DNA from: a virus
Taxonomy: Duplodnaviria > Caudoviricetes
Length of the DNA: 64,000 nt
Virus record (IMG/VR): IMGVR_UViG_3300001598_000001
Span: 67,490-131,489 of that record
Direction: 5' to 3' (one strand)
A program made the translations under genes and the position numbers. Shown here one piece after another: positions 550 to 48,043 of the stretch. Position 1 is the stretch's first letter, and each line of letters opens with the position of its first letter. The notes below the pieces were generated by a model. The model made no database searches. It saw only the letters and a list, made by a program, of their open reading frames with translations, and had not been told where the DNA came from.

Positions 550-554
550 CTATT

Positions 555-839: not shown

Positions 840-847
840 TTTACCAT

Positions 848-881
848 TTCCTCTCGCCTAAGGGCGGGAGGATTTTTATTT
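848..881 (+). terminator. Intrinsic terminator
   Basis: TCCTCTCGCC-taag-GGCGGGAGGA hairpin then TTTTTATTT. Confidence 0.7.
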
Positions 882-900
882 ATTACAGGAGGGCGATTTT

Positions 901-1845
901 ATGGATAAAATCAGAGAAAATAAAGCTGCTGATGAACTTGTAACTATTATTCGTGAAATCGTTCAAGAGCAGTTAAATCAAAAAGATACAACCGTATTAG
1001 GCGAGGTTATTCAAAACAAAGGCAATAATCATGTCGATGTCTATATTTATCCTGATCGTGAGACAGTGGTACATAATATATTAAATAGTAGTGGATATAA
1101 TTTATTACCAGGAGATTTTGTTCATATTTATAAGGTTGGAAATCAAATTTCAAAAGCTTTTATTATTAGTAAAATTGTTCCATATACTGGTATTATTAAT
1201 AACACAATTAATCCAGTTGGAAACTCTAATACTGTTATATCTATAACTTCTGATTATTGGATTAGTTGAGAGAACAATCAATGGATGTTAAATATATCTC
1301 CAAAATTAATTAATAATATAACTAATTCTACTAATGTAGAATTTGGTATTATTCGTTATTTGACATCACAAACACACCAAGGTAACAAATATCGTAATTA
1401 TAATAAAAAAGGTTATACTAAAACCAAAATAATTAATTTTGTTAGTAATCAAAAACAGACACGTCCACGTGCTCAAGATTGGGTTGGCGGGACCTTTAAG
1501 AACATTGTTATAGATGTTGTATCAGGAATATATAAACTGAATATTACTGATTATATTAATAATTTAATTTATTATGATATAGGCAGTACTCGTAAAAGAT
1601 CTTGGATTAATAAGAATTCACGTGCGCGATATAATACTTATTTAAAACAGGGATATTGATATCGTAAATATGGATTTTGATTTAAAATTAACAATGGTAG
1701 AGAATATGTTGAAAATCAAAAAATTTTTGAAATTAGAAATTTTGATCAAAAAGTATTAAAACATATAACTGATTATGATAATTATATAATCGAGAATAAT
1801 AATAATCTTGAACAAAATATAATTATCAAATTGATTAAAAGATAA
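901..1845 (+). CDS. Hypothetical protein, 314 aa (TGA=Trp); possible virion/baseplate protein
   Basis: ORFs 901-1269 and 1285-1659 are in one frame joined across in-frame TGAs; ends TAA at 1843-1845; CAGGAGG RBS. Confidence 0.7.
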
Positions 1846-1985
1846 TTATTAAAGAAAGAATATTTTGTAAGCGCGCCAGGCGTCGGCCAGTAGTAGTCAT
1901 TTTTGTTTTCACACATGAGGGGTGGGGTTTAAATTATATTCTTTCTTAATATTATTATATATGAAATAAAAGGAGCATTTTATTT

Positions 1986-2663
1986 ATGGAGATTAAATTT
2001 AAAAAAAATATTGATCAATATAAATATTTAGTTATGTTTGATTTAGCCAGTAAAATTACTGGTGTCTGTTTATGAGATATTCAAAATCATAAACCTATAG
2101 AAACACAAATATTAAAAGTTACAGGAAAATACGAATTACCTGTTGCAGAATTATTTGAATTAATTCATAATTATTTTGGTTATTTACAACACGAATATCA
2201 TATTGATTTAAAAGATGTTCTTGTTGGAAAAGAAGCTATGCCAAGTCAATTGCATGGCGGATCATCTACTGTACAAACATTTATTGCACTTTCACGTAGT
2301 CACAGTATTTTAGATAATTATTTATATCAACATAATATTGATTGTTATGATTATAAAGGTGTCGCTCCAATTACAACACATGCTTATTATAAGCAACTAG
2401 CAAATCTTGATAGTAAAGCTAAAGTAGATAAAGAAATGATTAGACAATATTTGTATAATTTATATAATTTGACTACAATTACATTAGATGAATCAGATGC
2501 TATATTTTTAGCGAAGACTTTATTAGAAGTTAAATGAAATCGAGATTTAGACGAAGCAATTCGCGAAGAAAAAAGACACCGTAAAACATTAAAAGCGGCT
2601 CATGCGATTAATTTATCAGAAGAAGAAATAAAACGTCTTAAATCGCTTAAAAATGCGTTTTAA
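1986..2663 (+). CDS. RuvC-like (RNase H fold) Holliday junction resolvase, 225 aa (TGA=Trp)
   Basis: Motifs MFDLASKITGV, VGKEAM, DESDAIFLA give the D-E-DxxD acidic set; two in-frame TGAs. Confidence 0.7.
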
Positions 2664-2694
2664 GAGCATATTATAATTTACAGGAGGCCAGTTT

Positions 2695-3702
2695 ATGGGA
2701 CGTAGTACAGTATATAATGATAATTTGACTCAAAATTGGTCAAATGTATCACAACAAAATAAAAGATTAGTTAAAGACTTTTTACAATATTGTAAATCCA
2801 ATGATAAAAGTCCACAAACTCTTCATCAATATGAAGAGTGACTTAAAGTTTTCTTTTGTTGAAATTTTCAAGAAAACGAAGATAAATTTTTTATTGATTT
2901 AAAAAAGAGAGATTTTGTTTATTATTTTGGATGATGTAGAGAGTTAGGAATGAGTGCAAATCGTATTGCCGCACTTAAGTCTGTTCTTAGTAGTTTATCA
3001 TCTGAAATTGAATTATTATATGAAGATTTATATCCTAATTTTCATAATCAACTTAGAGGATTAGAACCTGTACATATTACTACTGTTCGTGAAAAAACAG
3101 TTTTATCAACAGAAGAAATTAATAACATTCTACAAACATTGGTAGAAAAGAAAGAATATCAATTAGCTTGTTATTTAGCATTGTTGTGTGCTTCTGGTGC
3201 TCGAAAAGCAGAAATGCTACAAATGCGACCTGATTTTTTCACTGAAAGCCACGAAGTTTTCGATGGATATATGTATTGCACTCCACCTATTAGATCTAAA
3301 GGAAGGGGAAAACAAGGAAAAATTATTAAAAAATATGTGATTAAAGAATTTTTTAAACCTTTTTTTGATTTATGAATGGAAGAACGTGAAAAAGAAAATA
3401 TTACATTGTCGAATTTATTTGTAACTAAAAAAGATGGTCAATACGTGGAAGCTACCACATCAACAGCTAATAGTTTTGCTGCAAAAATTTCGAAAATGTT
3501 TAATATAGATTATTATAACCACTCTGGTAGACATTATTTTTGTACATTATTAAAATCAATGAATTTACCAGATGATGTTATAGTACAAATTTTTAGTTGA
3601 AGTGACGGATCCATGGTTAAAATTTATGATGATACGCCAGTCGAAGAAAAATTAAATAAATTTTTTATGCAATTTAAAAAGGAAGAAATAAAAGGAGAAT
3701 AG
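2695..3702 (+). CDS. Tyrosine recombinase/integrase, 335 aa (TGA=Trp)
   Basis: Catalytic set R (SGAR), K (RSKG), HxxR (HSGR), H/W position (FS*SD, TGA), Y (KIYD); fragments 2950-3375 and 3376-3600 share the frame. Confidence 0.85.
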
Positions 3703-3704
3703 AT

Positions 3705-4343
3705 ATGGAAGAAAAAATTTTATTATCAGAGATATTATCTTTAGCTGTTCAAATGAGAACCAATCCTTCTGATGAAACAGCTAAACAATTAGATTCTATT
3801 ATTAATAAGTTAATAGTACGTACATACATACCTACCGCTAGCAAAGGGACAATAGCTGCTGCGATTATTGATTTAGTTGTTACACAACCTGAGCTTGATG
3901 CTATTACTGGAAGTATGCAATTATATATTGGTAAATATTTTTATGGAATTCTAGGTTATTTAGTTAATTGTGAAGACGATGTTAGTGTAAAACCAATTAC
4001 TACAGGTGTAGTTGATAATATGTTTTCTTCTGGTTTAATTGATTATGTTTTAAGATTTTGTAATAATGATTTCCAAAAACTAGAACATATGATTGATGAT
4101 TGTATGAATTTTAATAATATATTACGATTATTAGAATCTTGTTCTTATTTTAATAATGATAATTTAAATAAATATGAACAATTAATAAAGGATTTCCAAG
4201 AAACATTAACAGAACCTAAATTAAAATATTTAAATGATTTATTTATTAATCAATCAGATGATTTTAAGCAATTAAAGCAGTTATTAAGTGAAACTGCAAT
4301 GGATAGAGTAAATAATATTGAATTAGATTCTGTTAAAAAATAA
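3705..4343 (+). CDS. Hypothetical protein, 212 aa (possibly tail assembly chaperone)
   Basis: AAGGAG RBS, helical character, lies upstream of tape-measure region; function is inference. Confidence 0.7.
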   Translation: MEEKILLSEILSLAVQMRTNPSDETAKQLDSIINKLIVRTYIPTASKGTIAAAIIDLVVTQPELDAITGSMQLYIGKYFYGILGYLVNCEDDVSVKPITTGVVDNMFSSGLIDYVLRFCNNDFQKLEHMIDDCMNFNNILRLLESCSYFNNDNLNKYEQLIKDFQETLTEPKLKYLNDLFINQSDDFKQLKQLLSETAMDRVNNIELDSVKK

Positions 4344-4366
4344 AATATAATTTAAGGAGATTTTAT

Positions 4367-4684
4367 ATGATTTACCTCGGACCAATACAAAATTATGCTC
4401 CGAAAAAAGCGAAATATATTAGTTATCTATCACGTAAAATGGTAGATTCTTATGCGCAATTAAAATATGAAGTTTATCAAAATAAAAATAATACGCAGAT
4501 TAAAGAATTTGTAATTATTTGGTTTTGAGTTGACGACGGAGTATATTATTCTCATGTAATTCAATGAAACGAAAAGCATAATCATTGTATTAAGCACAAA
4601 GTTCATGAAATTATAACTGGAACAAATGATAATGATGAAAAAATATACGCATTTGTTAAAAGGAATTGAAAGAAGATTTGGTAA
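4367..4684 (+). CDS. Hypothetical protein, 105 aa (TGA=Trp), absent from ORF track
   Basis: TAAGGAGA RBS, ATG 4367, three in-frame TGAs, TAA 4682-4684. Confidence 0.65.
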
Positions 4685-4731
4685 AAAAAGGTAAAAACAA
4701 ACAAGAAGGAAAACTTGTAAAAACCATTTAT

Positions 4732-4805
4732 GTTGATTTAATTTAATGGAAGAATAGTTGTTCAGTAAACAATGCACATTGGTTCGATTCCAATAATCAA
4801 CGCCA
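4732..4805 (+). tRNA. tRNA-Thr(AGT), divergent (C33, G73)
   Basis: Acceptor GTTGATT/AATCAAC, anticodon arm GTTGT-TC AGT AA-ACAAT, T arm ATTGG-TTCGATT-CCAAT, encoded CCA. Confidence 0.6.
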
Positions 4806-4822
4806 TTATAAAAAAAATACAC

Positions 4823-4851
4823 TTGACAGTTTTTTAATTACCCAATATAAT
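4823..4851 (+). promoter_or_regulatory. Sigma-A-type promoter with CCCA before -10, driving RNA island
   Basis: TTGACA-17 nt-TATAAT. Confidence 0.8.
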
Positions 4852-4876
4852 ATTAATGTAACCGTTAAAAGGTTAA

Positions 4877-5054
4877 AATATTTATCAATACTTTTACTTA
4901 TCGAAATGAGTTTGATCAACTATGTTAATTGATAAGAGAGAACGCTGTAGAGTTGACACTACACTGGTATGAAAATTCGTATCAGATAAAAACAGAGGTT
5001 CGGATATGAGAAGAGTAATTATCTTCCTAAAAGATTAGTTCAAAGATAAATATT
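4877..5054 (+). ncRNA. Putative structured ncRNA (~180 nt), unassigned
   Basis: Perfect 10-bp terminal pairing AATATTTATC/GATAAATATT enclosing hairpins such as CTGGTATGAA/TTCGTATCAG; no ORF; directly after promoter. Confidence 0.4.
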
Positions 5055-5058
5055 ATAT

Positions 5059-5153
5059 AGGGGCTTAGTGTAGTGGTAGCACACGAGACTTCAAATCTCG
5101 GGTAACAGCGTCCAAAGCTGCGGGTGTGGGTTCGATTCCTACAGCCCCTGCCA
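5059..5153 (+). tRNA. Opal-decoding tRNA-Trp(TCA) with 25-nt variable region
   Basis: Acceptor AGGGGCT/AGCCCCT, G73, CCA; anticodon arm CGAGA-CT TCA AA-TCTCG; T arm GTGGG-TTCGATT-CCTAC. Confidence 0.9.
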
Positions 5154-5161
5154 TATATTTA

Positions 5162-5694
5162 AACAGTATAAATTTAAATATATTAGATCTCGGTGTAAAC
5201 CAGACAATCTGGCCGAGAGTTACAAAGTAATGGATAGGTTTAGAGGATACCCTAAACTGAAAACCAAGATTATTATAGTGATATAATATGAGAAGATACC
5301 AACTAGTATCAACAACGGGTAACGTGCTAATATAATATCGGAGATAAAACCTAAATCCAACGCTCTCGTAATAACTCGTCCATATGCTCATACCAGGTGG
5401 TGCTGATGGTCAACATATGGAAAAACCAACAAGAGAGAATGCCTTGATGTCTAGTAAGTAGACTATAAGTTGGGATAAGGACAAGTAGCTGAATGGCGGT
5501 TCGTATGAAAAAGTACATATTTCAAAATCTGAAAGTCGGTGAAAGTTAGAGGTACCCAGTCCTCTCGATGGTAAAAAGGGCAAGAAGCTTTATGGTCGCA
5601 ACTTAAAGCTCAGACTTGTTCTATTCGTAGTTTAACAATCAGATATTATAAGTGGTAAGACGAAGGTCTCTAATACATTTAAATTTATACTGTT
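5162..5694 (+). ncRNA. Large structured ncRNA (~530 nt), ROOL-like
   Basis: 26-bp terminal helix 5162-5187/5669-5694 with one mismatch; elevated GC, many internal hairpins, no credible ORF, adjacent to tRNAs; family name from size/context only. Confidence 0.6.
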
Positions 5695-5713
5695 AAAGAG
5701 CAGTTTAAGATAT

Positions 5714-5783
5714 GGTTTTGGCAGGATTCAGTTAAGACATCTGCAGTAAATCTTAATGGTTGGTTCAACTCCAACAAAAACCA
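5714..5783 (+). ncRNA. tRNA-like RNA lacking a D-stem
   Basis: GGTTTT/AAAACC acceptor-like pair, T arm GTTGG-TTCAACT-CCAAC, central TTAAGA/TCTTAA stem with 13-nt loop. Confidence 0.45.
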
Positions 5784-5850
5784 CTTATTCGGGTTCGGGA
5801 TATGTCCATAAGCATATCAGCTCGTTAGTCCTAAGGAGAAAAACAAAGTT

Positions 5851-6117
5851 ATGGATGAAAACAAAATTTTAACAGCAGTTGAAGCTCGTACATTAGTACA
5901 AAAATCAACAACATTAAGAAATCGTATTTACAAGTTTATTAATGAAGAAGCTCGTGAAGGTAGAACAACTCTTGAATATGGTCTTACTTATGAAGATTTT
6001 AATTTAAGACAAAGTTTAATCGCAGATTTAAGATCTAATGGTTACACTGTAGATTTAATTATTGAAGAACCATTTGATAGCGGTTTTGCTATGATGAAAA
6101 TTTCTTGGGCAGAATAA
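5851..6117 (+). CDS. Hypothetical protein, 88 aa
   Basis: TAAGGAGA RBS, open frame. Confidence 0.75.
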   Translation: MDENKILTAVEARTLVQKSTTLRNRIYKFINEEAREGRTTLEYGLTYEDFNLRQSLIADLRSNGYTVDLIIEEPFDSGFAMMKISWAE

Positions 6118-6138
6118 TAAATAATAGTAATAAATATC

Positions 6139-6168
6139 GACAAGATCTCTAAGATGAGATCTTGTTTT
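6139..6168 (+). terminator. Intrinsic terminator
   Basis: ACAAGATCTC-taagat-GAGATCTTGT then TTTT. Confidence 0.65.
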
Positions 6169-6190
6169 TATATCTAAGGAGGTAATTCTT

Positions 6191-7402
6191 ATGAGTAAAA
6201 AAATTAAATTAAATGAAATGAAAAATGTGGATCGTAAATTAGAAACTCCACTATTTGGAAGAAATGCTTATGTGCAATTATCTCCAATATCACAATTTCT
6301 ATATGATATTACAATTGATTGTGTAGATTATGATTATGCTAATAATTATTTTAAGCAACGTCAGGTTCCAATCAATAATAGTGGTTGTAGTGTAGTTTGT
6401 ACCGATAATTTTACTGGCAGAGATTTAGATTGGTTTTACAATTGAGATTGTGAATTTTGGGTTCACACACCAGCATGTGATGGACGTTATGCCTCAAATG
6501 GTACAGCTAGTTCTGTTCCTGGTCTTACTAAACAAATGGTAGAAAGCGGGCAATATTTATCTGCTTACAATATTTTACCATTTTTTATGGTAGATGGTAT
6601 TAATGAATATGGTGTTTATTGTAGTACTAATGTTGTTCCTGAAGAAAAAGGTAATACTACTATAACTATACCTACTGAATCAAAGACAGCAGAAATTTCT
6701 ATGAATATGGTAGTACGTTATGTTTTAGATCATTATAAAACCGCTCAAGAAGCTGTTGAAGATTTACAAAAACATATAGCAATTTATAAAACCACTGGTT
6801 TAAAAAAAGTTGGATATGATGCTCATTATGAAATTCGTGATACACAACATAAATATGTAGTAGAAATTATTGATAATCAAGTTCAATATCAAGAACAACC
6901 TTATATTACTAATTTTCATTGTATAGGTGTTACTACTAATAGTGATGGAAAAGTTTACACTCCAGCCACTCAAGATGATAGTCACAATGCATATATTACT
7001 AATCATATTACCAAGCACGGTAGTGGACTAGAAAGATGAAATGTAATAGTTGATAATTACAATACAGCGGATAATAAAGAAAACATGGTTGCTTTAATGA
7101 AAGATTCTCTTAATTATAAAAAAGCATATAGTACTTTTGAAGAAGTATCTGACCCATTTTGGAATACAGAATTTGTAGGGGTTAACTCTCATGGAGATTT
7201 ATGTGTAGATAGTCCAGAGGCTGATTATGATTATATTAAACAATACACTGGACAGTTGTTTATTAATAGAAATAGAAATCAAGATAAAATTGGTACTTGA
7301 CATACCACTCACACTTGTATTTATGATCACATAGAACATAAAACATATTTTTATGATTCTAGCGAAGATGGTGTTGAACATATAATTACTTGAGATTTTT
7401 AA
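6191..7402 (+). CDS. Ntn-hydrolase (choloylglycine hydrolase / linear amide C-N hydrolase-like), 403 aa (TGA=Trp)
   Basis: GCS nucleophile site followed by TGRDLDW, DGINEYG motif; three track ORFs in one frame joined by TGA. Confidence 0.75.
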
Positions 7403-7418
7403 AATTTTCCATTATAAT
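7390..7418 (+). promoter_or_regulatory. Sigma-A-type promoter
   Basis: TTGAGA-17 nt-TATAAT, preceded by TCCAT. Confidence 0.65.
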
Positions 7419-7431
7419 AATATTAGATAAA

Positions 7432-7617
7432 AATAGGTGAAAACATACATAACTTAACAATAGACCCTATAATAGTATAAGATGGTAAGAGGCTTGTACT
7501 GATAGTTATGACGAAAGTATAATTCAAGATGGAGATTAGATCCTCGTTCAATTATATCACATCGGTGAAAAGGGTTTCCCTATATTAGGTAGACAAACAC
7601 CGTAAGAAACATCTATT
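7432..7617 (+). ncRNA. Putative structured ncRNA (~185 nt), unassigned
   Basis: Terminal pairing AATAGGTG/CATCTATT, internal GACCCT/AGGGTT; begins just after promoter; no ORF. Confidence 0.35.
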
Positions 7618-7679
7618 ATTTGGTGAACTGTTGAAGGTTTTAAATGTAAGTTAGGTTGACGTGCTTACAGCCAAATCAT

Positions 7680-7752
7680 GGGGATGCGTAGATCGTCTGT
7701 TATATTCATGTATAACAAAAACAAGAGGGGCAGCTCCTCTTCATCTCCACCA
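7680..7752 (+). ncRNA. Ala-accepting tRNA-like RNA resembling an isolated tmRNA tRNA-like domain
   Basis: GGGGATG/CATCTCC with G3-U70, A73, CCA; no D-stem; T-loop GGCAGCT; 7-bp TGTTATA/TATAACA hairpin where the mRNA domain would be. Confidence 0.6.
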
Positions 7753-7951
7753 AAAAGCTGACCGACAAAAGTCATTAAACTGCTCCATACATACTTTCAT
7801 GCGATGGTTAATTGAGAAGAGAAAGCGAAGTTAGAAGATTAAAATATCATTCTTCAAATTAGGTACTTTGGATAATTAAAAGCCTATATTTCATTATATG
7901 TAATAAAAATAGGATTTTATTACAATCATTAATCAACAGGAGGATTTAACA

Positions 7952-8287
7952 ATGAAATATTATAGTGAAAAAGTAAAAAAACTTTTTGATTCTGAAAAAG
8001 AATTAGAAACAGCAGAAAAAGAATTTGATGCTAAAGAATTAGAAGAAAAGAAAAAATTAGAAGCTAAAAAAGCTAGAGCAACTGAAGTAGAAGATGCCTA
8101 TAAACATTCTATTGAAGTTAGAAAAGAAGCGCAAAAATTAATTGATGAAGCTGATAATGCTTATTATGATTTAAGAGATGCTTTTGTTAAAGATTATGGT
8201 TCTTTCCATATGACATACAAAGATTCTAGCGAAAAACCAGTTACATTATCTTCTTTTTTTGATATTTTTGATAAATTTTGGTTTTAA
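7952..8287 (+). CDS. Hypothetical coiled-coil protein, 111 aa
   Basis: CAGGAGG RBS, open frame. Confidence 0.8.
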   Translation: MKYYSEKVKKLFDSEKELETAEKEFDAKELEEKKKLEAKKARATEVEDAYKHSIEVRKEAQKLIDEADNAYYDLRDAFVKDYGSFHMTYKDSSEKPVTLSSFFDIFDKFWF

Positions 8288-8288
8288 T

Positions 8289-8730
8289 TATTAAAGTGGT
8301 GTTCCGCTACCATTAAAGGCGAATTATGATGATGAATTAAAATTGGTGAAAACAACCAACCATTTCTCAGGTAGAGATAGACTGAATCGTTAGCGAAGGA
8401 TAGGTCGAGAACAAGTGTGATAGCATGCATACCAGAGGACCGAATGAGGGTGCATGTGCTGGCTAGAGGCAGAGAGCCCTGAAGAATATGCCGATGAGGA
8501 ACTTGCAACTAACTTTGATATTTTATGTGGTTGAGAACAAGTTTAGGTAGATGCTGAATTCCACGTTATAGCGAGATTACAAAATCACGTGCGAACCCAT
8601 AAAGCAGCCAAAAATATCTCAATTCTTCTGAATGATCGTTGACGGTCTATAATAGATAGGACTTATAGAAGAGAGATTCAGCCAAGAGGTGTTTGTGAGA
8701 AGGAAAACTCACCCTATCAAATAAACCTCT
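8289..8730 (+). ncRNA. Putative structured ncRNA region (one or more RNAs)
   Basis: GC-enriched non-coding stretch; TATTAAAGT/ACTTTGATA closes 8289-8520; hairpins e.g. TAGCATGCAT/GTGCATGTGCTG, GAGGT/ACCTC. Confidence 0.4.
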
Positions 8731-8849
8731 CAAATTGGAGCAAAGTAGTGACCACTTACGGCATAGCGGAATGGACTGCTGTATAAAAGGTCGGTGTTAT
8801 TCCTACCCGCTTTCATGGCAATGCAAAAAGGAATTACGTTTTAATATAT

Positions 8850-8923
8850 CGCAGGGTAGAGTAGTGGTTACTCAGTGGGCCCATAACCCACTCAGGCGAG
8901 TTCAATTCTCACCCCTGCAACCA
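8850..8923 (+). tRNA. Initiator tRNA-fMet(CAT)
   Basis: C1:A72 mismatch, GGG/CCC anticodon stem pairs, loop CC CAT AA, CCA end. Confidence 0.9.
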
Positions 8924-9011
8924 ATTATTATTATTTTTCCAAAGGAAAGATAATGAATATTAATTTTTTGTGGAAAAATAATAATTATTTAAATAATTAT
9001 TAATATAATAT

Positions 9012-9038
9012 AAGTCGCTTAAATAAAAGCGGCTTTTT
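9012..9038 (+). terminator. Intrinsic terminator ending RNA island
   Basis: AAGTCGCTT-aaataa-AAGCGGCTT then TTT. Confidence 0.55.
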
Positions 9039-9064
9039 ATTTAGTAAAATAGGGGGTATAGACC

Positions 9065-12000
9065 ATGAAAGAAAAAATAATTGAATATACAAACCTTAGT
9101 GATATTGATTTTAGTAAAAATAGCACGTTATACAAAGATATTAGTAGTATGGATAAGAAAGTCCGTGCTTTTGACGCTAGATCCAATGAAATTAATGATA
9201 AAATAAGTAAAGAAATATTCAGAGACGCTTTAGTAAGTGGTGGTAACAATAGTATTTTAGATTCTTTACATGGTATAGAAAACCTATGTCGTAGTAACGG
9301 AATTCAAACTAAAGTAACAGTAACAAACGATGGAATTAGTTTAGTGGCTTATGATGAAAATAATCAAGTTGTACCAGTTATCTCTTATATGGCTGGTTCA
9401 GATGGATTAGTAATTCGTGATAATTTAGTAGTATTAGATTCTTTGTATTATAGTCAAAATAATGCCACTGGTAAATCTCAATTAATTAATGGAACAGTTG
9501 CTTATTTAAATGAGTTTAATAAAATTTTAAAAACTAATTGAAGTAAGTTAAAATCACAAAAACAAGATTTTAGTTCTATTTTACAGTTTGCTCGTAATGA
9601 AGCTAATAAACAAATTCCTATAACTAATCAAGGAACTTATAAATTTGTTGGTAATTCTGGAAAAGAGATTTTATCAAACTTAAAAAAACAAAAAAATGTT
9701 TTTAAAAACAAGAGTAAGAGTTTCGATGTTGATCCTAGTGCGTTTTGAGAAAATATTATTTATGACACTGTTAGAAAATCGGTAGCTCCTGGGGTTACTT
9801 CACAAGATCAATCTTGAGCACAAAAAGAACGTGAAATTCGTCCAATAATAGAAAAACTTGCTAAAGAAGCTTCTAAACTACCTTCTGTAAAACAAGCAAC
9901 TCGATTATTTAGTGAAGATTATGATATTAGAAAATTAATTACTAAAGACAGTAATCTAAAAGCTAAGATTATGGAAGCGGTTAGATTTTTTTCTGAAATT
10001 ACTTGAAATCAATCTAATATGTCTGAAGCTGATGCCCATAAAGGTAAAGTGGCAATATTTGGCGATAGTAGAACTGGTATTTCTGGTCAAGAATCAATTA
10101 CTAAAAAAGATCAAGGTAGTTCATATTTAAAACGAACTAAAGCTGGTCAACACAATACTTATGCACATGTAGCTGGTGGTATTTTAACTTCTAAAACAGG
10201 TTTTAAAGGTAATTCTGCAGATTATGATTTATTTACTATTGCTCCTGTTGAATCTGAAGCAATTTCTGAAGGTATGAATAATATGTTTAAAGCAGCCGTA
10301 GAACACGAAAAGGTTGCTCGTGAAAACATTAAAAAATACGGAGAAAATATCAAACACAAGGCAGAATTAATTAAAATATTAAAAAATAAACTTGATACTA
10401 TTAAAAAAGATGACTATAGTGATTTAGAACATGAAATGATTTCTCAAATTATGGAAATTTATGAAAATTATCGCACTGTTCATGATACAGGTAATAATCA
10501 AGTGCAATTTGATACTCCTGAAGAATTTAGAGATTATTTAGTTAATGAAGCTAATAAACGTTTTGCTCAAAAAGTAAAACAACGCAAAACTTATAATAAA
10601 GAAAGAAAGAAATCTTTAACTAGTGAAATTGCTGATATTAAAGTTGCAAACACAGACGCTAAATATAAACAAGCAGCAGCTAAAGCTTATCATAAAATTA
10701 ATGAAGAATCTGTAGAAGATTTTGCTTTAGACAAATTGCGCAAACAATATCATATGGATTTTAATCCTAATAAGCCTCATTCTGATGTGTTGGATGATCA
10801 AATCATTATAGTTAAAGAAGCATTAGCTGAAATACAAACACAATTAATGCAACAACAAGTTTTTACAGAAAAAGATATTAAAAAAGCTATGAAAGCTGGA
10901 AATTATCAAATTTCTGAAGAAGCTGTGTTGGCTAAAATAAACGAACAACGAAAACAGCAAGGTTTAGATCCTGTTTCTATGAAAGACCTAAAAGTTGGAC
11001 TTAATAAAGAAAAAGGTGTATTTACAGCACAATATACTGAAGATTTTATTATCAAAGAAGGAACTAAATTATTAAATTATTTAGGTAGAGAACGTTGATC
11101 TTCTTCAAGTTTACCAGCAGATGTAATGAAATCTGTCTTAAAAGCACAAGCACGATTAATTGCTTCTGTTAAATCTGGTACTAATGATGTTAATGACACT
11201 AAATATCAAAAAGAATTTGCAAAAGCCAATTCTATGTATTTTGATTCCAATGATAATCTTAAAGTTGCAGGCGTTAGTGGAATTAGTTCATCTATTAAAG
11301 GTGAAAAATTTTATGGTTGAAGCCAAGGTGTTATGTCCTATGCTTTAGGTGAATTGTTTAATCAAAGTTATAAAAAGAATATTTCTAATGGTCAAGAAAA
11401 AGCAGTAGCTAAGTCTGAAGCTATTAATAAAGTTCGTGAAAAATGAAATGAATCTGTAGATAAACTAGTCGCACAAGGACAATTAACTACAGAACAAGGT
11501 GAAAAATTTAAACAATTAGTTACAGGTGTTAATGAAAAAACTGGAAAAGTAAATTTTAATACTGATTCAAAAATTACAGATTTTGTTAATAAAAATTTAG
11601 TACATTACGTCAAGTTAATTAATACTGTTTACAAAGATAATACAGGCCGTAAACTTGGTACTTATAAAAATAATAAAAATGAAGGAGAAGTTTTTGAACT
11701 TGATCCTTATGCTTTATATGATATAGGTATTAATCCGTCTATAGTTGCCGAGGGAGATTGGGATCCACATAAGAGAGTTTCAATGGCTCATAATGAAAGA
11801 CAAATTAAAGAAAGAGAAAATGAACGTTTAGCAGCTATGGGTAAAGACGTCACTGTTGAAAGAGCTATGCTTGATGTTCAATATGAACAAGCTATTGAAA
11901 AAAATACTAAATATCAAAATAAATTAAAAGCTGTTAGAGACGCAGTTACTAATAATTTTAATGCTGATAGAATTGATGTTGAAGACAAAGATAAAGATAT

Positions 12001-15000
12001 CACAGCTATTGTAAATTTAGCTGATTTAAATAATGCTAAAAATGTTGAAAGAGATGTTATTGACCCTGCTACATTTAATTCTAAAGATTTTACTCAAACT
12101 AAAGAGGGTATTATTTGGACAGCACAACAAAATAAATATCAAGAATTATTAAATGAGTTTATTGATCCAAATAAAATTAAAGAAATTGAAGAATTGCGTA
12201 AAGCTAAAAAATATAAAAAAGCAAAAGAATTAGAGGTACTAGAACAACAAAGAGTACAAAAAGCCGTATTAGATAAATATAAAGTTGAAAGTGCCAAAGA
12301 TATTAAAATTGCTGGAAAAACTAATATTCAAGGATATTTAAATAAGAGTGTATCTGGATTAGATTATGATGCTATGACAGGAGAGCTTTTAGATCTTGCT
12401 GGATACGATATAGAACAAGATGAAAATGGCAATTATCGTATTAACAACACAGCAGACTATGAATATAATCGTAGTATTCTGAGATCTTATGAAAACGCTC
12501 TTAAAGAAGATATTTTAGAAGATAGACAAGCAAAATTTGGAACTGGAATTTATAAAGCTGGTCTTGAACGTGAGCGAGCTTACGTAGAGAAAAAAGGTTC
12601 GGAATTTGAAAAATTTGCTAAAAAAGAAAGAACACATAGTAAATTTTTAAAAACTAAAGATTTAAATAATGCTGAAAAAGATACATTATATACTAGTAAG
12701 AGTGATATTAATGAAATGATTTCTCAACGAGAGAATGAAACTGATGAGGAATATAATAAACTTATTAAAGGTATATACAAAGATACTTTAGGTGTTAATA
12801 ATGCTCCAAGAAGAAAACAAAATGAAACTCTTCAAGATTATAATACTCGTATTAAAGATAGTGTATTAAAAGCTATTATAGAAGACGATAAAGATCTTAT
12901 CATGGATGTCACTAGAGATCCTAATAATACAGCTATGGCTGGTATGAAAGTTAAAATTAAACATTTAACTGGTATAGGCGAAGGTGTAGTTGGAGGAGAT
13001 CCAGCTTTAATTAAATTTCTTAAAGGTGACTATGATGGTGATAGATTAGGTTTAGCTTTAGATGCTGATGGTAATATTATTGGTGCTGTTCGTATGACTC
13101 AAAAACAAGTTGACGAACATATGCTAAAAGAAAGAATATTAGCGGAAGAAGATGCTGAAGTATTACGTTTTATTACCAATCAAAAAGGTGGAAGTACTTT
13201 ACCGTCTGCCAGCACAGCTATTAAAATAGACAAAAATGGTAAAAAATATATTGAAAATACTACGTTAGATGTAGCTGATTTAACAGGACTTGAACGTAAT
13301 GCTTCAACACAATTATTATCATTTGAAGCAAAACAAAATAAGGATGACTATGTTGGACTATATTCTAATTTTAGAACTAGTGCAACTACTGGATTAGAAG
13401 AAAAATTTGGAAAAGGTTTAGGTAAAACAGTAAATACTGCTAAAACTGGATTAGCTATTGAAGCCTTATCTTTATTATTGGCTCGTCCAGAACAAGCTGC
13501 AATTTCTTCTAAACACTTGAAAAATTTAGCAGCCACTGATCCTGAATTATTTAAACAGTGATTTGAATGAGAAGAAAATGAAAATGGTGAACTTATTCAT
13601 AAAAAAGATGAAAATGGCAATGTTATTTTCAAACAAGCTTATTTAGATCGTTATGAAAAATTAGCTAAAGATTTAAAGAATTCTGATAATTGAAACAGTG
13701 AAACTCAAAGAGAAGCATTATTACAAGAAATGGTTAATCTTGGAATGATTGAAGGTAGTGGTAAATTTACTGACGATCAATTCTTTGGTGAATTTTGAAA
13801 ACTTGCTAATACTGAATTAGGACGTAAAGGTTTAACTGGTATTAACAAACGTTATAATAAATTATACGGAAAAGATGGTAAATTAAAAGCTGGTGCTGAT
13901 TTAAGTATCATGGATCTTGATTTTATCAGAGATATGTTAAATTGGTTATCAGTTCAAAGTGCAGAACTTGCTCCTAATGAAACATTGGGACATATAGTAA
14001 CTACTGGTAGACAATCTGCTCTTGATAAACAACGTGTTTATGATCAAAAAAATTTAATTGAAAAACCAACTGAAAAACAAATCAAAGAACACAAAGAATC
14101 CTTGGGTAAAGATGTCGAAGTAGAAATTCTTAAATCTATTAATTTATTAATTGATACTATTAGACAGTCTAGTGGAGTCATTGCTCAAGCAGCAGGTATT
14201 AGTGGTGGTAATGGAAATCGTTTTGCTTATAATATTTCTAATATTACAGATAATAATAAGAGAAATGTTTTAGCTGCTGCATCCAGAGCTGGTGGCTATA
14301 CTAATAAAATTACACCTACTGAGATTGCTCGAGTGAATGCTCGTAGTGGGGATAAAATTTATAGTAATTGAGATGAAATAATTAAAATTTTAGAAGATCC
14401 TACTGTAGATGTTAAAGAGAAACAACGTATTATTGGTCAAATGTCCGATGCTGACAAAAATTGGGCATTAGCCACTCGTCGTGGTAAATTAGTTCACCAA
14501 TTTAGTGAAGATCAACGTTTAATTGAAAAATATAATTTAACTAACGTAGATCCAAATAAATGAAATGAAACATTAATTAATCAATTTAAAAACACCAATG
14601 ATATCAATGAAAGAAAAGAAATTTCTCAATTTTTAGGTATTTTAAACAAAAAATCTGACGAATTAAATCATGAAAATGGTGGTTTTGTAAAACAATATAA
14701 AGAATTTAGTGAATTAAGTAAAATTTTAGATATCAAAGATACAGATTGATTATCTAAAATTATAGCATCAGCTCAAATTTTAAATAAAATGTCTTCCAAT
14801 GAAACAGTTATTGGTAAAGAAGTTGGTATGCATAATTATATTAATGTTAATGGTGAAGATACTGTTGAACATGGATATATTGACCAAATTACCAGAGCGG
14901 CTGTTAAGAAGGCCCAAACAGATATTAATGGTGAAAAATATGAAGTAGATGCTAATCGTTATACAATGGAAGATTTAAAAACTACTTCTGGAACAGGGGT

Positions 15001-18000
15001 TGATCTTTCATTAAAAGACGCAGAACAAGTTCTTCGTTATATTAATTATGGTAGTCAGGCTAATAAACAGTTTAAAGAGGAATTAGGTGGACTTGCAAAA
15101 GTTCCTACCACAGCCAAAGAGTTAAAAGATTTTTTAGCCAATGAAAAAGATTTAAATAAATATGCTGCAATTCGTCAATTTGTTGATGATATTGAAGAAA
15201 ATGGTGGGGTACTTACTGACGATCAAGTTCAAATGTTAGCAGATAAAAATGCTATTTTTGAAGGACGTATTAAAAAAGTAGATACTCAAACAAATGAAGC
15301 TGCATCGTATCGTATTGGTGCAAGTCAAGCTAAAGAACTTATTCAAAGATCACAAAACGGAGAAGATATTAGTGGATTTTTAGGTAATTTTGTTGAAGAA
15401 AGACAATTTTATCAAGCTGGTAATTCTGTTTCTGAACTTAAAGAAGAAATTACTTTATTAAAACAAAAATATGAATTACAGTTAAAAATTAATAAAGCTT
15501 TATTAGAAGGAAAAGATAATGAAGCTGCTGTTCTACAAGAACAAGAAAAAGAAGTTGATCTAAAACTTAAAGAAGCTCAGAAATCAACTAATAAAATTGC
15601 TGACACCACAGAAAGAAAAAAATATGTTCGCGATACTCGTAAGGAGATTGAAGAACAATTACAAAAAGAAAATGATCAAGCTTTAAAGTTGTTACAAGCT
15701 CAAAAGAATGATAAACAAAAAGCTGGTCCTAATAAAAATATATTAGCTCGTTTGAGCACGGGATTTGATGAGGGAATTACTCAACGTTTGAATCGTGCAT
15801 TTAGTGGTTATGCTATTTTTGCTAAACTTACTCAAGGGATCCAAACCGTTAAAAAGAATGTTATTGATTTAGATAAAGTTTTGACTAATCTTCGTATTGT
15901 CACTCAACAAAATGAAGAAAGTACTCGAAACTTGATTAAGGGGTATTCAGAACTTGCAGGAGAATTAGGTGTGTCAACAACAGCTGTTGCTACAGCTGGA
16001 CAAGAATGGCTAAGACAAGGCTATGATATAGCAGAAACCAACAAATTAATTGAAGCTTCAACTAAATTAAGTATTTTAGGTATGATGTCTTCTGCTGATG
16101 CTGTTAAATCATTAACCAGTGCAATGAAAGGATTTAAAATGGAATCCTCAGAAGCAATAGATATAGTAGATAAATTAACCAAATTAGATGTTAATGCTGC
16201 TACTACTGCTGGTGAAATTGCTAGTGCATTATCAGAATTTGCAAACGCTGCAAGTTTAGGTGGCTTAAATATTGATCAAGCTTCAGCAATGGCAACTACT
16301 ATCATGGATGTTACTCAAAATAGTGGTTCTCAAGCTGGTAATGCTCTGAAAATGATGTTATCAAGATTTGGTAATGTTAAATCTGGTGCCTATTCAACTC
16401 TTAATATTTCTGGCGATGCAGATACGGAAAGTGCTAGTCTAAACGATGTAGAAAAGGTTTTAAAGAATATTGGTGTATCATTAAGATCATCAAATTTAGA
16501 ATTCCGTTCATTTAGCGAAGTTTTAGATGAAATTAGTGAAAAATGGGTTAATTTAGATAATGTTAGTAAGAATGCAATTGCAACTGCTTTTGCTGGAACA
16601 AGACAACGTGAATCTTTCCTTGTCTTGATGGAAAACTATGATAAATATCAACAATTACTAAAAGTATCTGAAAGTGCCGCTGGAACTTCTGAAGAAAAAA
16701 TTAAATCTTATCAAGAATCTATTGCTGCTTTACAAGAAGAAATAAAAGCCGCATGGGAAAATTTAGCTAATAATAAATCTATTTCTGACTTCTTAAAACT
16801 TATACTTAGTACTACAACCCAACTTATTAAATGATTACCGTGAATAGTTAATATATTAAAACCATTATTAGCTACTAAAACAATTAGTATCGCTTCCAAC
16901 TTTTTTGGTAATGGGTTAAAAAATGGATTTTCTGGTTTATTTAAAAATGTTACTGCTACACAAAAGAATACAACAGCAATTGAAAAATTAACTACAACTT
17001 TAGAAAATACTTCGAACACTTCTGGAAACGGCGTATATAGTCGTAATAATATTGCAGTTGGTGCTGCGGGTATTACATCTACAGGTGCATTAACTTATGG
17101 TAATAAATCTGTCGGTCTTGGTGATGATGGTAAGTATTATTATTTAAAGAACGATGGTTCTTTATCTAAAAGATCAGTTAGTGCTGCGGGACAAAAAGAA
17201 ATTCAACAAACCGCAGAAAATAATAAAAAGCTTAAAAAAGCTGGTAGTTGAAGAAATAAAACGGGTGGTGAAAAAGTTGCTGCTGGTGCAGCTGCTGGAT
17301 TATTAGCTGGGTTAACAGCTGATACCGATACCAAAGATATATATGGTACAGGAGACACAACCGTTAATTCTACATTACAAACTATAGATAAAGTTGCTAC
17401 TGGTGCGGTAACTGGTATAGCTACAGCAATTGGCGGACCTATTGTTGGGGGTATTGCTAATATATTAATGGAAGTTGCTACAAAATATGCAATGCCATGA
17501 TTAGAAAAAATTTTCTTCAAACGCGATTTTGAATTAAAACTTTTAAATAAAAGTATTAATGAAGCAAAAGAAAATATTGAAAAAATTAATAATATTCAAA
17601 ACTCTTTAAATACTTTAGTAGAATTATCAAATAAAAACATTTTAATTGGTGAAGATTATACCAAAGCTGTTGATGAATTCAATAAAATATCTGCAGCACT
17701 GGTTGATGACCCTAAAACACTTAGTGTTTGAAATGAAATTTTACATAATACAGATGATTTATTAGATGGTGTAGATAATGAAACGCTTTCTTTGTCTACT
17801 TTACGAGAAGCTTATTTAACTGGTAGTGCTCAAGAGAGAGCTGAAATAGCTACTGCTTTACGTGCATCATCAGAATTAGTTGAAGCTAGAGAATTCCAAC
17901 GAACTTATTCGGCAAAAATGTATGAAGTTAATGAAACTATTAATAGTGCTCGTCAATATGATGCTGAATTTTTAGAGAAAAACGGAGTTTTAGATCAATA

Positions 18001-20800
18001 TAAACAATATGCTAAAAATAAATATGCACAAATGAGTGATGCCGAAATTATTAAACAATTTGGCAGTGTTGCAAGCGAATTAAAGTATGGAATAAATTGA
18101 CTTGGTGGTTGGACAAATTTTAACACTAATAAAATGACTTCTTTAGACGTTGTTGCTCAGGAAGTTAGAAAATATTTAGAAGATAATGTTGATAAAACTT
18201 TCCAAGACAATTTTAACTCTGATGTTCATTTACGCGAAGAATTATCTACTTTATTAAATGAAAGTGTTCTTGTTGATTATTGAAACCAAACTATTGAAAG
18301 TTTAACTAAACAATTGGAACAAGGTGAAAATGTTAGTGAAGAACTACGCAAAGCTAATAACGAACTAAACAAAGTTCAAAATGCTATTAATTTAAAACAA
18401 AACTATACAGATGAAATTAATTATAAATATGCTCAAGCAGCATTATCTGCTTCTGGTTTAGAAAATTTAACTCAAGCACAATTAAATAATATGGGTTATA
18501 AAGATAAACTTAATAAAATTGCAGAAAATATGGAGTCTTATGGTTATTCTGTTTATAATTCTGATGGTGTGTTATCAGCTCAAGCTCAAACATATATTGA
18601 AAATGCTATTAGAAGTAATAGTAAAATATATGGATCTGTTAGTGGTCAAGTCTATTCATTAGCTGAAGTTTTAAACAAAGATAATGAAAATTTATTTAGA
18701 AATTATCAAGAAATTCTATGGCAGTGATCAGAAGCTTTGGGTGTAAGTGTTGATGAATTAGATGATTTAAAAGATACTTTAGGAGATATTACCTTAGCTC
18801 AAGTTTTAAAAACTCCAGACGAAACACGTCAAAATATTTCTGAACTAACTTCTATGTTCACATCTATTTCTTCTTCTACTGGTATTACCGCTGAAAATAT
18901 AGAGAACATTATTACAAAGTTCCCACAATTATTACCTTATGCAAGTAGTGTTGGTGATTTAATTGGGGGGTTAACCAAAGGCATAGAACAGTATAGTAAA
19001 TTATATGCATATCAGATCACTAATCAAATTTTAAATAGTGAATCTGTACTTTCAGATATTCAAAAAAATATGAGAGAGGGTACTGTAGATGTTGATATAA
19101 GTGAAGATGATCAAAAACAATTATATGAAACATTGTTATCTAACTATTCATTTGGTAATGGAAGTGTTTTAAATGATATGCTTGGTTTAATATGGGGTAA
19201 TGCTGAAGAAAACGGTATAAGTGAGGAAAATCAAGAAAAATTACGAACTATTGTAGAATCTTATTTACCAGATATAGAAAATACGCTTGAGCGAGATTCT
19301 ATTAAGCAACAAATAGATTATCAACAAAAATTATTTGATCAACAAATTAATAATTTACAAGAACAAAAAGAAATGTTAGATAATATAAATCATCAACGTG
19401 AGTATGAAAATAAATTAATCGAAGCTAAACTCAAATTAGAAAATTCTCAAAAAGAAAAGAAAAGAGTTTGAAGATCTGGAGTTGGTTGGACTTATGAAGC
19501 TGATCAAAACAGTATTTTAGAAGCCCAAAAACAATTAGAAGATGTTGAAAATGAAAAGAACGTCTCTAAAATTGATCAAGAAATTCAATTATTGAATTCA
19601 CAAAAAGAGTTATTAGCTAATATTGCTAGTAGTGAAGAATTTGAAAATATGCGAGATTCGTGAAAAGGTTGGTCTGAACAAATGAAGCTTTATAATGAAG
19701 ATCAAGAAACCATAATCACTAATTTATCAACTTTATATAGTTCAATTAGCAAAATTTCTACTAAGGATATAGCTGAAGACATAGCTGATGCTGGAGTAAA
19801 TAATGCTGATGAAAAATTAAATACATTAGATACTTTATATAATACAGCTCAATCTTATATAACTGGCGAAAATAAAAATGCTCCAACTACAGTAACTGCT
19901 TCCCAAGAATATGCAGATTGAGAAAATAATCGAAATAATGCTCTAACAGCTTATCAAACAAAAGCCAATGAGTATAAGAACGTTATTACTCAAGATTGAC
20001 AAACCAAACACTCAGATCATGCAGCCATTATGAAAGCTTCTCAGCTTCATAATCAACAAGATACTATCATGATTGATGGAAAAGCCTATACTGTTGGCAA
20101 TCAACCATTAAGTGACACAGATCCTTACTATCAATGAGTACAAGATGACCTTCGCGCAGGCGAAAAAGGCCCTCAAGACAGTAATGGTAAGGGTAAAGGT
20201 AAGTATGTTAAAGTATTTGATCCAAAAACAAGTACAGAGACAAACGAAGATGGAATATTAAATTATTCTCGAAGTAAAAGTAAAACATATGGAGAGGTTA
20301 ATGGTTCTGATGATAAAAAAGATTATAGTAGTTTAGTGTTATCAGATGTGGCAGCAAGTTTGAGTGATGGTACTATTTTAAGTAGTGAAAGTGGAACCGT
20401 AGAATATGTTATGGTTATGAACCATCAACTTAGACAATTAGATCCGAAGGCCAAAGGAACTTTAGATTTAAATAGTCATGGCGTTTTATTGAATGAATTA
20501 GGAACAGAAGCAATTGTAACACCTCAAGGTACAATTACAGCTCTTCCTTCTCACTCAGGTATTGTGCCAGCTGATATTACTCGTAATTTATGAGAATTAG
20601 GAGAAATTTCTCCTACACTTACACATTTGCTTGATCATTTGAATAATCAAATGGTTCCTGGAAAGAGTGTATTTGGTAATGATGAATCATTTAATATTAA
20701 TACTATTAATATGACAGTTAATGCTGATAATAGTTTTGATGCTCAAAAATTTATTGAGAGTGTTAGACAACGCGCAGCTTTAACAAAACATAATCGTTAA
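9065..20800 (+). CDS. Giant tape-measure protein, 3911 aa (TGA=Trp), with N-terminal RNAP-like and central PD-(D/E)XK-like domains
   Basis: Eleven track ORFs share one frame separated by TGA; TP901-type TMP core (LDKVLTNLRIVT...AGQEWLRQG...AFAGTRQRESFLVLM); VTRDP...GDYDGD at ~12908-13042; C-terminal NELGTEAIV motif. Confidence 0.9.
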
Positions 20801-20827
20801 AAAAAGAAATACAAGGATGGTGGTAAT

Positions 20828-21742
20828 ATGATTAAAGATTATTATATTTATGATGGTACAACTTTATTAGGATTGTTGTATATTCCCGTTGGAGTAAGTT
20901 CAGATAAAATTATTCCTTCGTTTATTACAACACTTGGTAAAGGATGTTTTAAAAATCAAAATTTTTCTACTATCATTATACCACCATCCATAAAAATTAT
21001 TGAAGATAATGTTTTTGAAAATTGTAAATTTTTAACATCACTAGAAATTCCATCTACAGTTGAAACTGTTGGAAATAATATTTGTTGTAATTGTAACAAA
21101 TTACAAACTTTTAAATATTCATCCACAACACAAATGGGTAAATTTATTTTACAAAATTGTTATATGTTAAAAGAGTTAATCATTAATGATGAAAATTTTC
21201 GTGTTTGATATCACAATTCTGAAAAAGTATTCGGAATAGGTGTTTTAGATTATGTTACAGATAATGGATATAAAATTTATAAAGGACACTGAAGTATTGA
21301 AGAATTATTAGGTTGGGGATTACCAGTCGGTAAAGAAAATTTAATTTATTTTGTAGAATATAATAATAAAGTTTGGTATGATCCTTCTTTAGAACAAGCT
21401 TATAAAGGATGTCAATATCTTAATAGTAATATGTCGATTTGTGATTTTTTTCATAAAAAATTTTTACCTATGGATACAATCACATGATCGGAATTTTCTA
21501 TTATATTGGGCATTTGTTCGCAAGGAAAACCATTCTGAGATTTAATGTGTCATAAAGATTTAAATACTAACAATGATAATATTTCTGTAAATGACTTAAT
21601 CAAAGTTTTACAAAAACATCAATTTTTATCTCCTATATTGTTAAGATGAGTAGAAGTGTTACAACATAAAAATGAATGTTTTACAAAGTTTACAGATATT
21701 AGTTATGAAAATATAAATTTATCTCAATATTTTCAATTATAA
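20828..21742 (+). CDS. BspA/TpLRR leucine-rich-repeat protein, 304 aa (TGA=Trp)
   Basis: Repeats IIPSFITTLGKGCF, IIPPSIKIIEDNVFENC, LEIPSTVETVGNNIC; frame continues to TAA 21740-21742. Confidence 0.75.
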
Positions 21743-21996
21743 TTTAGAGCGAGATAGTTAATTCTATCTCCTCTAATATGAAATTTTATTTTTACTTAAA
21801 ATATCTATATATTATATTAGTGGTAAAAATCGTTAGTAACTAACCTTATACGGTAAATTACTTGATAAAATTTCCACTATTAATATCAAGATGTTTTAAT
21901 TAGACTATAGATATTTTAATTAAATATATAATTTATATTATAGACTCAATAAAAGAGTCATTTTATTATACGCTTAAGGGCAAGGAGGAAAAAATT

Positions 21997-31060: not shown

Positions 31061-31074
31061 AAGGAGAATCAGAT

Positions 31075-42388: not shown

Positions 42389-42405
42389 TTTAGGAGGTAT
42401 ATTTT

Positions 42406-42759: not shown

Positions 42760-42760
42760 T

Positions 42761-43375: not shown

Positions 43376-43390
43376 GAGGTATAAACAATT

Positions 43391-44005: not shown

Positions 44006-44009
44006 TTTT

Positions 44010-44846: not shown

Positions 44847-44848
44847 TT

Positions 44849-45346: not shown

Positions 45347-45350
45347 AATT

Positions 45351-46922: not shown

Positions 46923-46934
46923 AGGTAGACAAAT

Positions 46935-48032: not shown

Positions 48033-48043
48033 GGAGGAAGTAT

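Follow-up and report, generated by a model that had tools for sequence, protein, structure and literature searches.

Can a phage outside the Thermus group carry an RNA polymerase (RNAP) into its host as part of its tail tape measure? To our knowledge, the P23-45-like Thermus phages are the only phage group in which a virion RNAP is fused to the tape measure, and a search of the full-text literature returned no report of a tape measure/RNAP fusion outside the Thermus group. The question is raised by a stretch of 64,000 nucleotides (nt) from a tailed phage (Duplodnaviria; Caudoviricetes; positions 67,490 to 131,489 of IMG/VR record IMGVR_UViG_3300001598_000001), all of which was analysed and which we call the window. 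In the window a gene at 9065..20800(+) encodes a giant tape measure protein with RNAP-like motifs in its N-terminal part, which the original prediction, made from the letters alone, took for a two-barrel virion RNAP like that of P23-45, fused to the tape measure of a code-4 phage. The fusion, the homology of its module to RNAP largest subunits and the conservation of the catalytic residues throughout a family of such proteins are established by the analyses described here, and phages of this family probably bring an RNA polymerase of their own into the host when the tail tape is injected.

One recoded gene for a module and a tape measure

Read with TGA as tryptophan (translation table 4), 9065..20800(+) is a single open reading frame (ORF) of 3911 amino acids (aa) that contains 28 in-frame TGA codons, as had been claimed. 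Under table 11 the same region falls into at least 12 pieces, the one with the DYDGD motif being 592 aa long (11783..13561), and standard-code annotation does hide the fusion, again as foreseen. The tryptophan reading is directly supported by W3691 and W3843, both written TGA, because at least 90% of homologues have tryptophan in these two alignment columns, and for most of these homologues the ORF is open under the standard code. Taken together with the tRNA with anticodon UCA (Table 1), a virus record that is complete (131,489 bp, with terminal repeats) and an early block with zero in-frame TGA codons beside structural genes with many, these columns indicate, on sequence evidence, that the recoding in this phage genome is real. 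The RNAP-like module and the tape measure lie on one polypeptide both here, in the TGA=Trp ORF, and in standard-code relatives, where the ORFs are continuous.

The original prediction had gone on to describe a code-4 phage of a low-GC host. Its TGA=Trp reading holds, but a code-4, low-GC host is unlikely to judge from the codon content of the genes: the complete avoidance of TGA in the early genes fits a host that uses the standard code and a phage that recodes in a stage-specific way. Across the whole genome, stage-specific recoding is visible as early and replication genes without in-frame TGA (window 41456-57032); the gene for PolIII-alpha, for example, writes 14 of its 14 tryptophans as TGG, and the structural genes use TGA for most of theirs.

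Conservation of the motifs in long tape measure proteins

We denote the 3911-aa window protein P0001 and two of its homologues P0016 (locus L067) and P0067. The three motifs behind the original prediction are found exactly where it had placed them: MDVTRDP at aa 1280-1286 (nt 12902-12922), GDYDGD at aa 1321-1326 (nt 13025-13042) and IKEGTKLLNYLGRER at aa 663-677 (nt 11051-11095). Taken alone, the D.DGD motif is weak evidence, because it appears in 6.9% of shuffles of P0001 (R.P followed after 25-60 residues by D.DGD appears in 0.08%), and the case that the motif is real therefore rests on its conservation in the family. For the tape measure part of P0001 there are 92 homologues, with lengths of 2183-4870 aa. 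Among the 59 that reach 3600 aa or more, 56 contain a single RxP...DxDGD, located at aa ~1100-1600; the motif is missing from all 33 shorter ones, from which the RNAP-like module is absent rather than decayed. Many family copies read NADFDGD exactly. The proposal had been made to depend on DxDGD being conserved in homologous tape measure proteins, and in the long ones it is.

Scans of IMG/VR and of metagenome contigs yielded 137 loci, including 49 motif-bearing ORFs of ~27 distinct types, which come from human-gut, rumen and other samples and use code 11, 15 (TAG=Gln) or 4; in human-gut and rumen metagenomes, the fusion is present in no fewer than 56 distinct protein clusters. These sequences point to a large and apparently undescribed family of tape measure/RNAP fusions in gut and rumen phages. 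Among its relatives, several have ORFs that seem to end ~76-130 aa into the tape measure domain because of a group I intron: the intron (Rfam, 76 bits) splits the conserved tape measure core of one relative, at L020:10290-10571(+), L021 and L022 are similar to this intron-bearing locus, and L024, L045 and L048 are possibly so. Another relative (L057 and L058) has one ORF of 7185 aa (212..21766), far longer than the other members, with DFDGD ~2040 aa from its start.

What is conserved within the module is a small set of residues. In an alignment of 28 fragments of 900 aa, with ~15% identity, ten columns are invariant (R1284, P1286, D1322, D1324, G1325, D1326, G1431, Q1477, I1480 and K1483); P0001 has all ten, and the same ten are invariant in alignments A2, A4 and A6. 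That the catalytic set is kept while the rest of the sequence drifts argues for a working active site and for selection on catalysis. P0001 is the most diverged member of the family. A family hidden Markov model built without it aligns its aa 578-1822 colinearly (19.6 bits; E 1.5e-8 in a one-sequence search), and BLAST and phmmer comparisons of its aa 1-2000 with the family homologues recover a weak stretch at the motif only. Other searches with this part of the protein were negative: phmmer with aa 601-1800 against 1.84 billion representatives returned the self-match only, phmmer with the N-terminal part against the PDB gave no match, the N-terminal ~2000 aa have no Pfam or PHROG match, the N-terminal part found nothing in a pattern scan of IMG/VR or in tblastn against 50,697 phage records, and a feature search of the ESM Atlas with aa 401-921 gave no usable match.

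Relationship to RNA polymerase largest subunits

Searched against 177,635 PDB sequences, the family profile built from alignment A3 gave 36 matches, almost all of them RNAP largest subunits and all on RxP...DFDGD, with the GDYDGD stretch aligned to the NADFDGD of these subunits; E-values were 7.9e-4 for phiKZ gp55, 9.2e-4 for vaccinia Rpo147, 1e-3 for AR9 beta' and 0.013 for RPB1. The Pfam family RNA_pol_Rpb1_2 is found at the motif of P0067 (E 2.2e-4; 22.0 bits, under the cut-off of 25.3), and in other members the best sub-threshold Pfam families are LEF-9 (baculovirus) and Rpb1_2.

Structure prediction agrees with these profile matches. In an AlphaFold2 model of P0001 aa 882-1781 made from alignment A3, aa ~1190-1322 form a double-psi beta-barrel (DPBB) with a predicted local distance difference test score (pLDDT) of 85-94, and P0001 has the arrangement that marks two-barrel RNAPs, a barrel A, at aa ~1188-1324 of the model, with a DxDGD loop preceded by RxP. 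VIA-align 2 matched the P0001 barrel to a designed DPBB (Z 5.9; root-mean-square deviation (rmsd) 2.1 A; 69 residues aligned) and, at Z 5.4-6.0, to plastid, mycobacterial, archaeal (Rpo1N) and AR9 beta'-type chains, and AR9 beta' was the top and sole near-significant Foldseek match of the P0001 model. Two double-psi barrels had been expected; one is predicted at the motif in P0001, and the other stays a candidate, as described below.

A more confident model was obtained for aa 705-1625 of the homologue P0016 from an alignment of 55 rows (pLDDT 83.4; predicted template modelling score 0.80). Its top 50 Foldseek matches in the PDB are all RNAP beta'/RPB1-type chains (best 2.6e-4), and VIA-align 2 against 48,161 representatives placed RPB1 first (Z 8.8; 425 residues aligned; rmsd 6.2 A), with Z of 8.6 for Rpo147, 8.5 for Rpo1N, 8.4 for Pol I, 7.8 for mycobacterial beta' and 7.5 for QDE-1. 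A second-look structural search with the same model returned 196 chains at Z of at least 8, and the best 50 of these 196 are all RNAP largest subunits. At the core of the match, model residues 334-867 lie on RPB1 356-1413 (225 aligned; rmsd 3.9 A; Z 8.8), and the superposition on RPB1 and Rpo147 runs through residues ~334-871, far past the barrel. Inside the superposed stretch, the G..SN and EQ..IS.K blocks are in long helices (585-619 and 631-668); P0001 keeps the residues of these candidate bridge-helix and trigger-loop blocks, its own model being moderately confident there. Model residues 121-340 align with the N-terminal clamp part of beta'/RPB1. In a viral structure library the best match of the P0016 model is another 'minor tail protein' (1.6e-10), followed by crAss-like giant-protein segments (weak) and nucleocytoviral and poxviral RNAP subunits, mixed with unnamed proteins. 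P23-45 gp96 (8h2n) and crAss gp66 are absent among the best 50 rows of the structural searches and may stand at lower ranks. Family conservation, the profile matches, the P0001 barrel and the P0016 model all support the parallel first drawn between this motif and the beta' RxP...NADFDGD loop, and we consider homology between the module and the RNAP catalytic subunit very likely.

A candidate second barrel

A two-barrel RNAP would need a beta-like partner for this barrel, and the original prediction had pointed, with less assurance, to a beta-like motif upstream. The motif is part of a conserved basic block (Table 1), whose lysine is kept in ~24 of 29 sequences of alignment A5, some of which read SGDKGLG or TGDKILGG. 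The block lies ~655 aa upstream of DxDGD, a spacing reminiscent of beta followed by beta', separated by a clamp-like stretch; such a stretch agrees with the alignment of model residues 121-340 to the N-terminal part of RPB1. In P0016, the predicted packing of aa 400-704 on aa 705-1394 reached an ipSAE of 0.74 (best control, 0.00), a result to which the arbitrary cut within one protein and the likeness to solved RNAPs may have contributed in part; of 80 solved complexes, 58 attain the mark used, as do 2 of 110 mismatched pairs. Runs share at least 80% of their contacts, the pLDDT of the partner is at least 78, and the predicted interface includes the DxDGD loop (1225-1229) and basic-block residues 551-575. 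Together with the basic block, this modelled packing supports a two-barrel active site, and we infer a barrel fold for the upstream region. Of the beta-like claim, then, the block has held up as a conserved one, and in the homologue it is predicted to lie at an interface with the DxDGD loop; the beta barrel itself is a candidate.

Tape measure and nuclease-like domain

The identity of P0001 as a tape measure is recognisable, in Pfam and PHROG searches, for aa ~2000-3600 only. Its membership of this class is shown by a PhageMin_Tail core, by great length and a largely helical make-up, and by a match to the PHROG 4211 tape measure family at E 6.4e-38; one of the 92 homologues carries the name tape measure protein in its source, and relatives from cultured phages have the same annotation. 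In the nuclease-like domain that precedes this part, G1807, G1930, D1970, K1972 and Q1988 are near-invariant across the family. Pfam PDDEXK_1 matches the equivalent site of P0067 (aa 1660-1805; E 5.7e-6), and the nuclease-like region of P0001 itself has no Pfam match.

Table 1. Features of the fused gene and its likely suppressor tRNA, in window coordinates
Feature	Position	Strand	Remarks
tRNA, anticodon UCA, likely opal suppressor for the 3911-aa gene	5059..5153	+	ARAGORN; Rfam tRNA 59.9 bits
Polyprotein: N-terminal region, RNAP-like module, nuclease-like domain, tape measure	9065..20800	+	Open with TGA=Trp only; homologues are continuous ~4000-aa ORFs
Candidate beta-like second-barrel region, aa ~560-900	10742..11764	+	Colinear with family profile; equivalent to P0016 aa 400-704
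Conserved basic block G666-x-K668-x5-G674-x2-R677	11051..11095	+	The beta-like GDK...G.K motif of the original prediction
Predicted beta'-type double-psi beta-barrel (DPBB-A), aa ~1176-1340	12590..13084	+	From K-K-G-S-E-F block via R1284-D-P1286 to Mg loop
G-D-Y-D-G-D metal-binding loop, D1322/D1324/G1325/D1326	13025..13042	+	Invariant in alignments A2, A3, A4 and A6
Conserved blocks YVGLYSN (G1431) and EQAAISSKH (Q1477, I1480, K1483)	13349..13516	+	Candidate bridge-helix and trigger-loop segments; invariant columns
PD-(D/E)XK (RecB-like) nuclease-like domain, aa ~1800-2000	14462..15064	+	Between polymerase module and tape measure
Tape measure core, Pfam PhageMin_Tail (PF10145), aa 2296-2511	15950..16597	+	E 2.3e-27; tape measure part extends to C-terminus

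Genome context

The phage is of gut type and its genome is SPbeta-like: it is ~131 kb long, has genes for DnaB, primase, PolIII-alpha and NrdD, and its tape measure core is YomI-like, with 25% identity. Outside the window, at genome 43119-46019(-) (L138:3120-6020(-)), it encodes a YonO homologue of 966 aa, P0094, which contains RSP...ADFDGD, matches PHROG 8308 at E 3.7e-89, has 26-27% identity to SPbeta YonO (E ~1e-30) and is written with 7 in-frame TGA codons. With P0094 and the fused module, the phage has two phage polymerases, as P23-45 does (PMC10770324). A survey of phages with two RNAPs (supplement of PMC10770324) includes no genome that combines YonO with a tape measure fusion, and overlap with its 'Cyano_RUMTOR_01356' family is possible.

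Over the whole genome there are ~16 sigma-70-type promoters of the form TTGACA-17-CCCA[T/A]TATAAT, which stand in front of the early and replication modules, the YonO operon and the suppressor tRNA; those in the window are at ~4846, 7413, 41253, 41340 and 49559 (+). The CCCA directly before the -10 element is unusually conserved in these promoters. We considered CCCATTATAAT as a phage-specific promoter and rejected it, as it is the -10 region of a sigma-70-type promoter with a -35 element 17 bp upstream. Elsewhere in the window, a ROOL RNA (Rfam RF03087; 233 bits; full length) lies at 5165-5688(+), directly after the tRNA(UCA), a further tRNA is found by Rfam at 4732-4802, and in the tail region a radical SAM/SPASM enzyme (31385-32791) adjoins a 386-aa ORF (cluster 29900-32791).

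Comparison with known polymerases

The tape-measure-fused virion RNA polymerase described by Chaban et al. (2024), gp96 of P23-45 (PDB 8h2n; PMC10770324), is an active, clamp-less two-barrel RNAP formed by aa 327-1124 of a 5002-aa tape measure, and it transcribes the pre-early genes (PMC10770324). The present family resembles it in having a two-barrel-type RNAP module N-terminal on the giant tape measure of a long-tailed siphovirus, in having some relatives with shorter tape measures that lack the module and, like P23-45, in having a second, free-standing phage RNAP in the genome. There are also several differences. The gp96 core lies within aa 327-1124, whereas the Mg loop is found here at aa ~1100-1600; gp96 is clamp-less with a short connector, whereas the ~655-aa spacer of the present family can be superposed on the beta'/RPB1 clamp; C-terminal to the module there is a RecB-like nuclease domain, unlike in gp96; the second polymerase is of YonO type rather than gp64 type; and the hosts are mesophilic gut or rumen bacteria rather than Thermus, with family members in codes 11, 15 or 4. 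There is no significant sequence similarity to gp96, the A3 profile matching the P23-45 tape measure 8h2n at an E-value of 0.49 at the motif only. The reading of the gene as a tape-fused RNAP is supported overall, with a module whose clamp-like N-terminal part brings it nearer in appearance to a cellular-type beta' than to gp96.

RNAP largest subunits, whether bacterial beta', archaeal Rpo1N, RPB1, Rpo147 or the beta'-like subunits of jumbo phages, match best both by profile and by structure (Z 8-9 over 220-440 residues); the module has in common with them the K.G...RxP...NADFDGD barrel and, as predicted in the homologue model, the helices that come after it. It differs from the multisubunit enzymes in being much smaller, in lying within a 3911-aa virion protein, in an identity of 9-14% and in the lack of a gene for a separate beta, alpha or omega partner (the genome has no PF00562 match). 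YonO of SPbeta is a free protein of ~800 aa, to which, as to P0094, the fused module is similar at the DFDGD loop only. The crAss-like gp66 and the virion RNAP of phage N4, which is T7-like, are also carried in very large virion proteins; unlike the protein studied here, those are podovirus ejection proteins rather than tape measures, and crAss-type proteins are weak structural matches to the module only.

Discussion

The explanation that we favor is that the first ~1750 residues would form a fast-evolving single-chain RNAP of the two-barrel (cellular beta/beta') type. Its beta'-like half (aa ~1000-1750) would consist of a clamp-like N-terminal part, a DPBB with the Mg-binding DYDGD loop at its end, and helices resembling the bridge helix and the trigger loop; the basic block at aa 666-677 would probably be part of a second, beta-like barrel closing off the active site. 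Along the protein, the polymerase module would be followed by the RecB-like nuclease domain and then by the tape measure proper. During infection, the tape measure leaves its place within the tail tube and is expelled into the host envelope, so a polymerase fused to it would be delivered with the DNA. We infer that the module is catalytically active, that it is present in the virion and that its templates would lie on the entering genome, where the delivered enzyme would make RNA either as pre-early transcription or for transcription-coupled DNA entry. RNA synthesis on the entering genome has been demonstrated for P23-45 gp96 (PMC10770324). Judging from the models and the family comparisons, the module is likely to be a working, tape-delivered polymerase.

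Several results weigh against such a role. P0001 itself has no significant sequence match to any RNAP in Pfam or phmmer searches, and its AlphaFold2 model has a mean pLDDT of 58.8 and is poor outside the barrel. The Z of 8-9 found for the P0016 model is only moderate for 920 residues, although the match lists are homogeneous and the superpositions reach far beyond the barrel. For the second barrel, the A5 profile of the upstream region found no RNAP beta match in the PDB, and a six-frame search of the genome with Pfam RNA_pol_Rpb2_6 (PF00562) was negative. No candidate promoter that would serve the fused enzyme specifically came to light, and the sigma-70-type promoters mean that the host RNAP could start infection without a virion enzyme; from their placement, the host enzyme is probably able to start the phage programme.

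The alternatives differ in how much of this evidence they leave standing. That there is no fusion at all, with TGA a stop, the pieces small genes and the DYDGD piece a free 592-aa protein, is scarcely credible: table 11 does split the region into many ORFs, but one frame stays open through 28 TGA codons, the TGA-coded W3691 and W3843 align with conserved tryptophan, standard-code relatives are continuous ~4000-aa ORFs with the same order of parts, and the phage has both a tRNA with anticodon UCA and early genes without in-frame TGA. Tape measures often carry cell-wall hydrolase domains, and the DxDGD could be a chance occurrence in an Asp-rich protein whose barrel is another kind of DPBB, for example, that of an RlpA, MltA or 3D-type cell-wall hydrolase. 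The frequency of D.DGD in shuffles (6.9%) is in keeping with chance, and the P0001 barrel alone scores equally against Cdc48-N, designed DPBBs and RNAPs. We nevertheless regard this as very improbable, as the motif keeps its position across the family and often reads NADFDGD, the matches of the A3 profile are almost all RNAP largest subunits, and the P0016 model superposes on RPB1 and Rpo147 far past the barrel.

More of the evidence is shared by two explanations that accept a polymerase ancestry. The module may be the remnant of a polymerase, kept in the tape measure as a structural or plug domain only and inactive in the very diverged P0001, the member with no BLAST or phmmer similarity to the others outside the motif and with a model that is weak outside the barrel. 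A relic seems distinctly unlikely, however, when P0001, at ~15% identity, retains each of the ten residues invariant in the family, the three aspartates among them, and the shorter homologues lack the module altogether instead of carrying decayed copies. Alternatively, the polymerase could be active in a job other than gene expression, pulling in the 131-kb genome by transcribing it, or making primers or processed RNA with the RecB-like nuclease. Such a role would suit an enzyme tethered to a channel-forming tape measure, as proposed for gp96 (PMC10770324), in a phage that already has sigma-70-type promoters in front of its early and replication modules and in which the nuclease-like domain is conserved directly after the polymerase module. 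We think it unlikely, given that gp96, the only studied precedent, uses promoters of its own to transcribe defined pre-early genes (PMC10770324).

In its most specific form, the tape-delivered polymerase that we favor can be stated as follows: SPbeta-like siphoviruses of the gut and rumen would inject, within their tape measure, a miniaturised clamp-bearing beta-beta' RNAP together with a RecB-like nuclease, in a fusion that arose independently of gp96 and in which only ~10 catalytic residues are fixed. We put this forward tentatively, with somewhat more doubt than confidence in the whole. If it is true, tape-measure-delivered transcription would be a recurrent strategy of long-tailed phages and not an oddity of Thermus phages. 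The gp96-type architecture recurs in any case in a sequence-unrelated family, under three genetic codes, and such enzymes are hidden from annotation that uses the standard code or Pfam alone. If the module is active, structural and evolutionary studies would gain a compact, one-chain enzyme related to cellular RNAP, and the finding would give a new view of early infection by abundant phages of gut Firmicutes.

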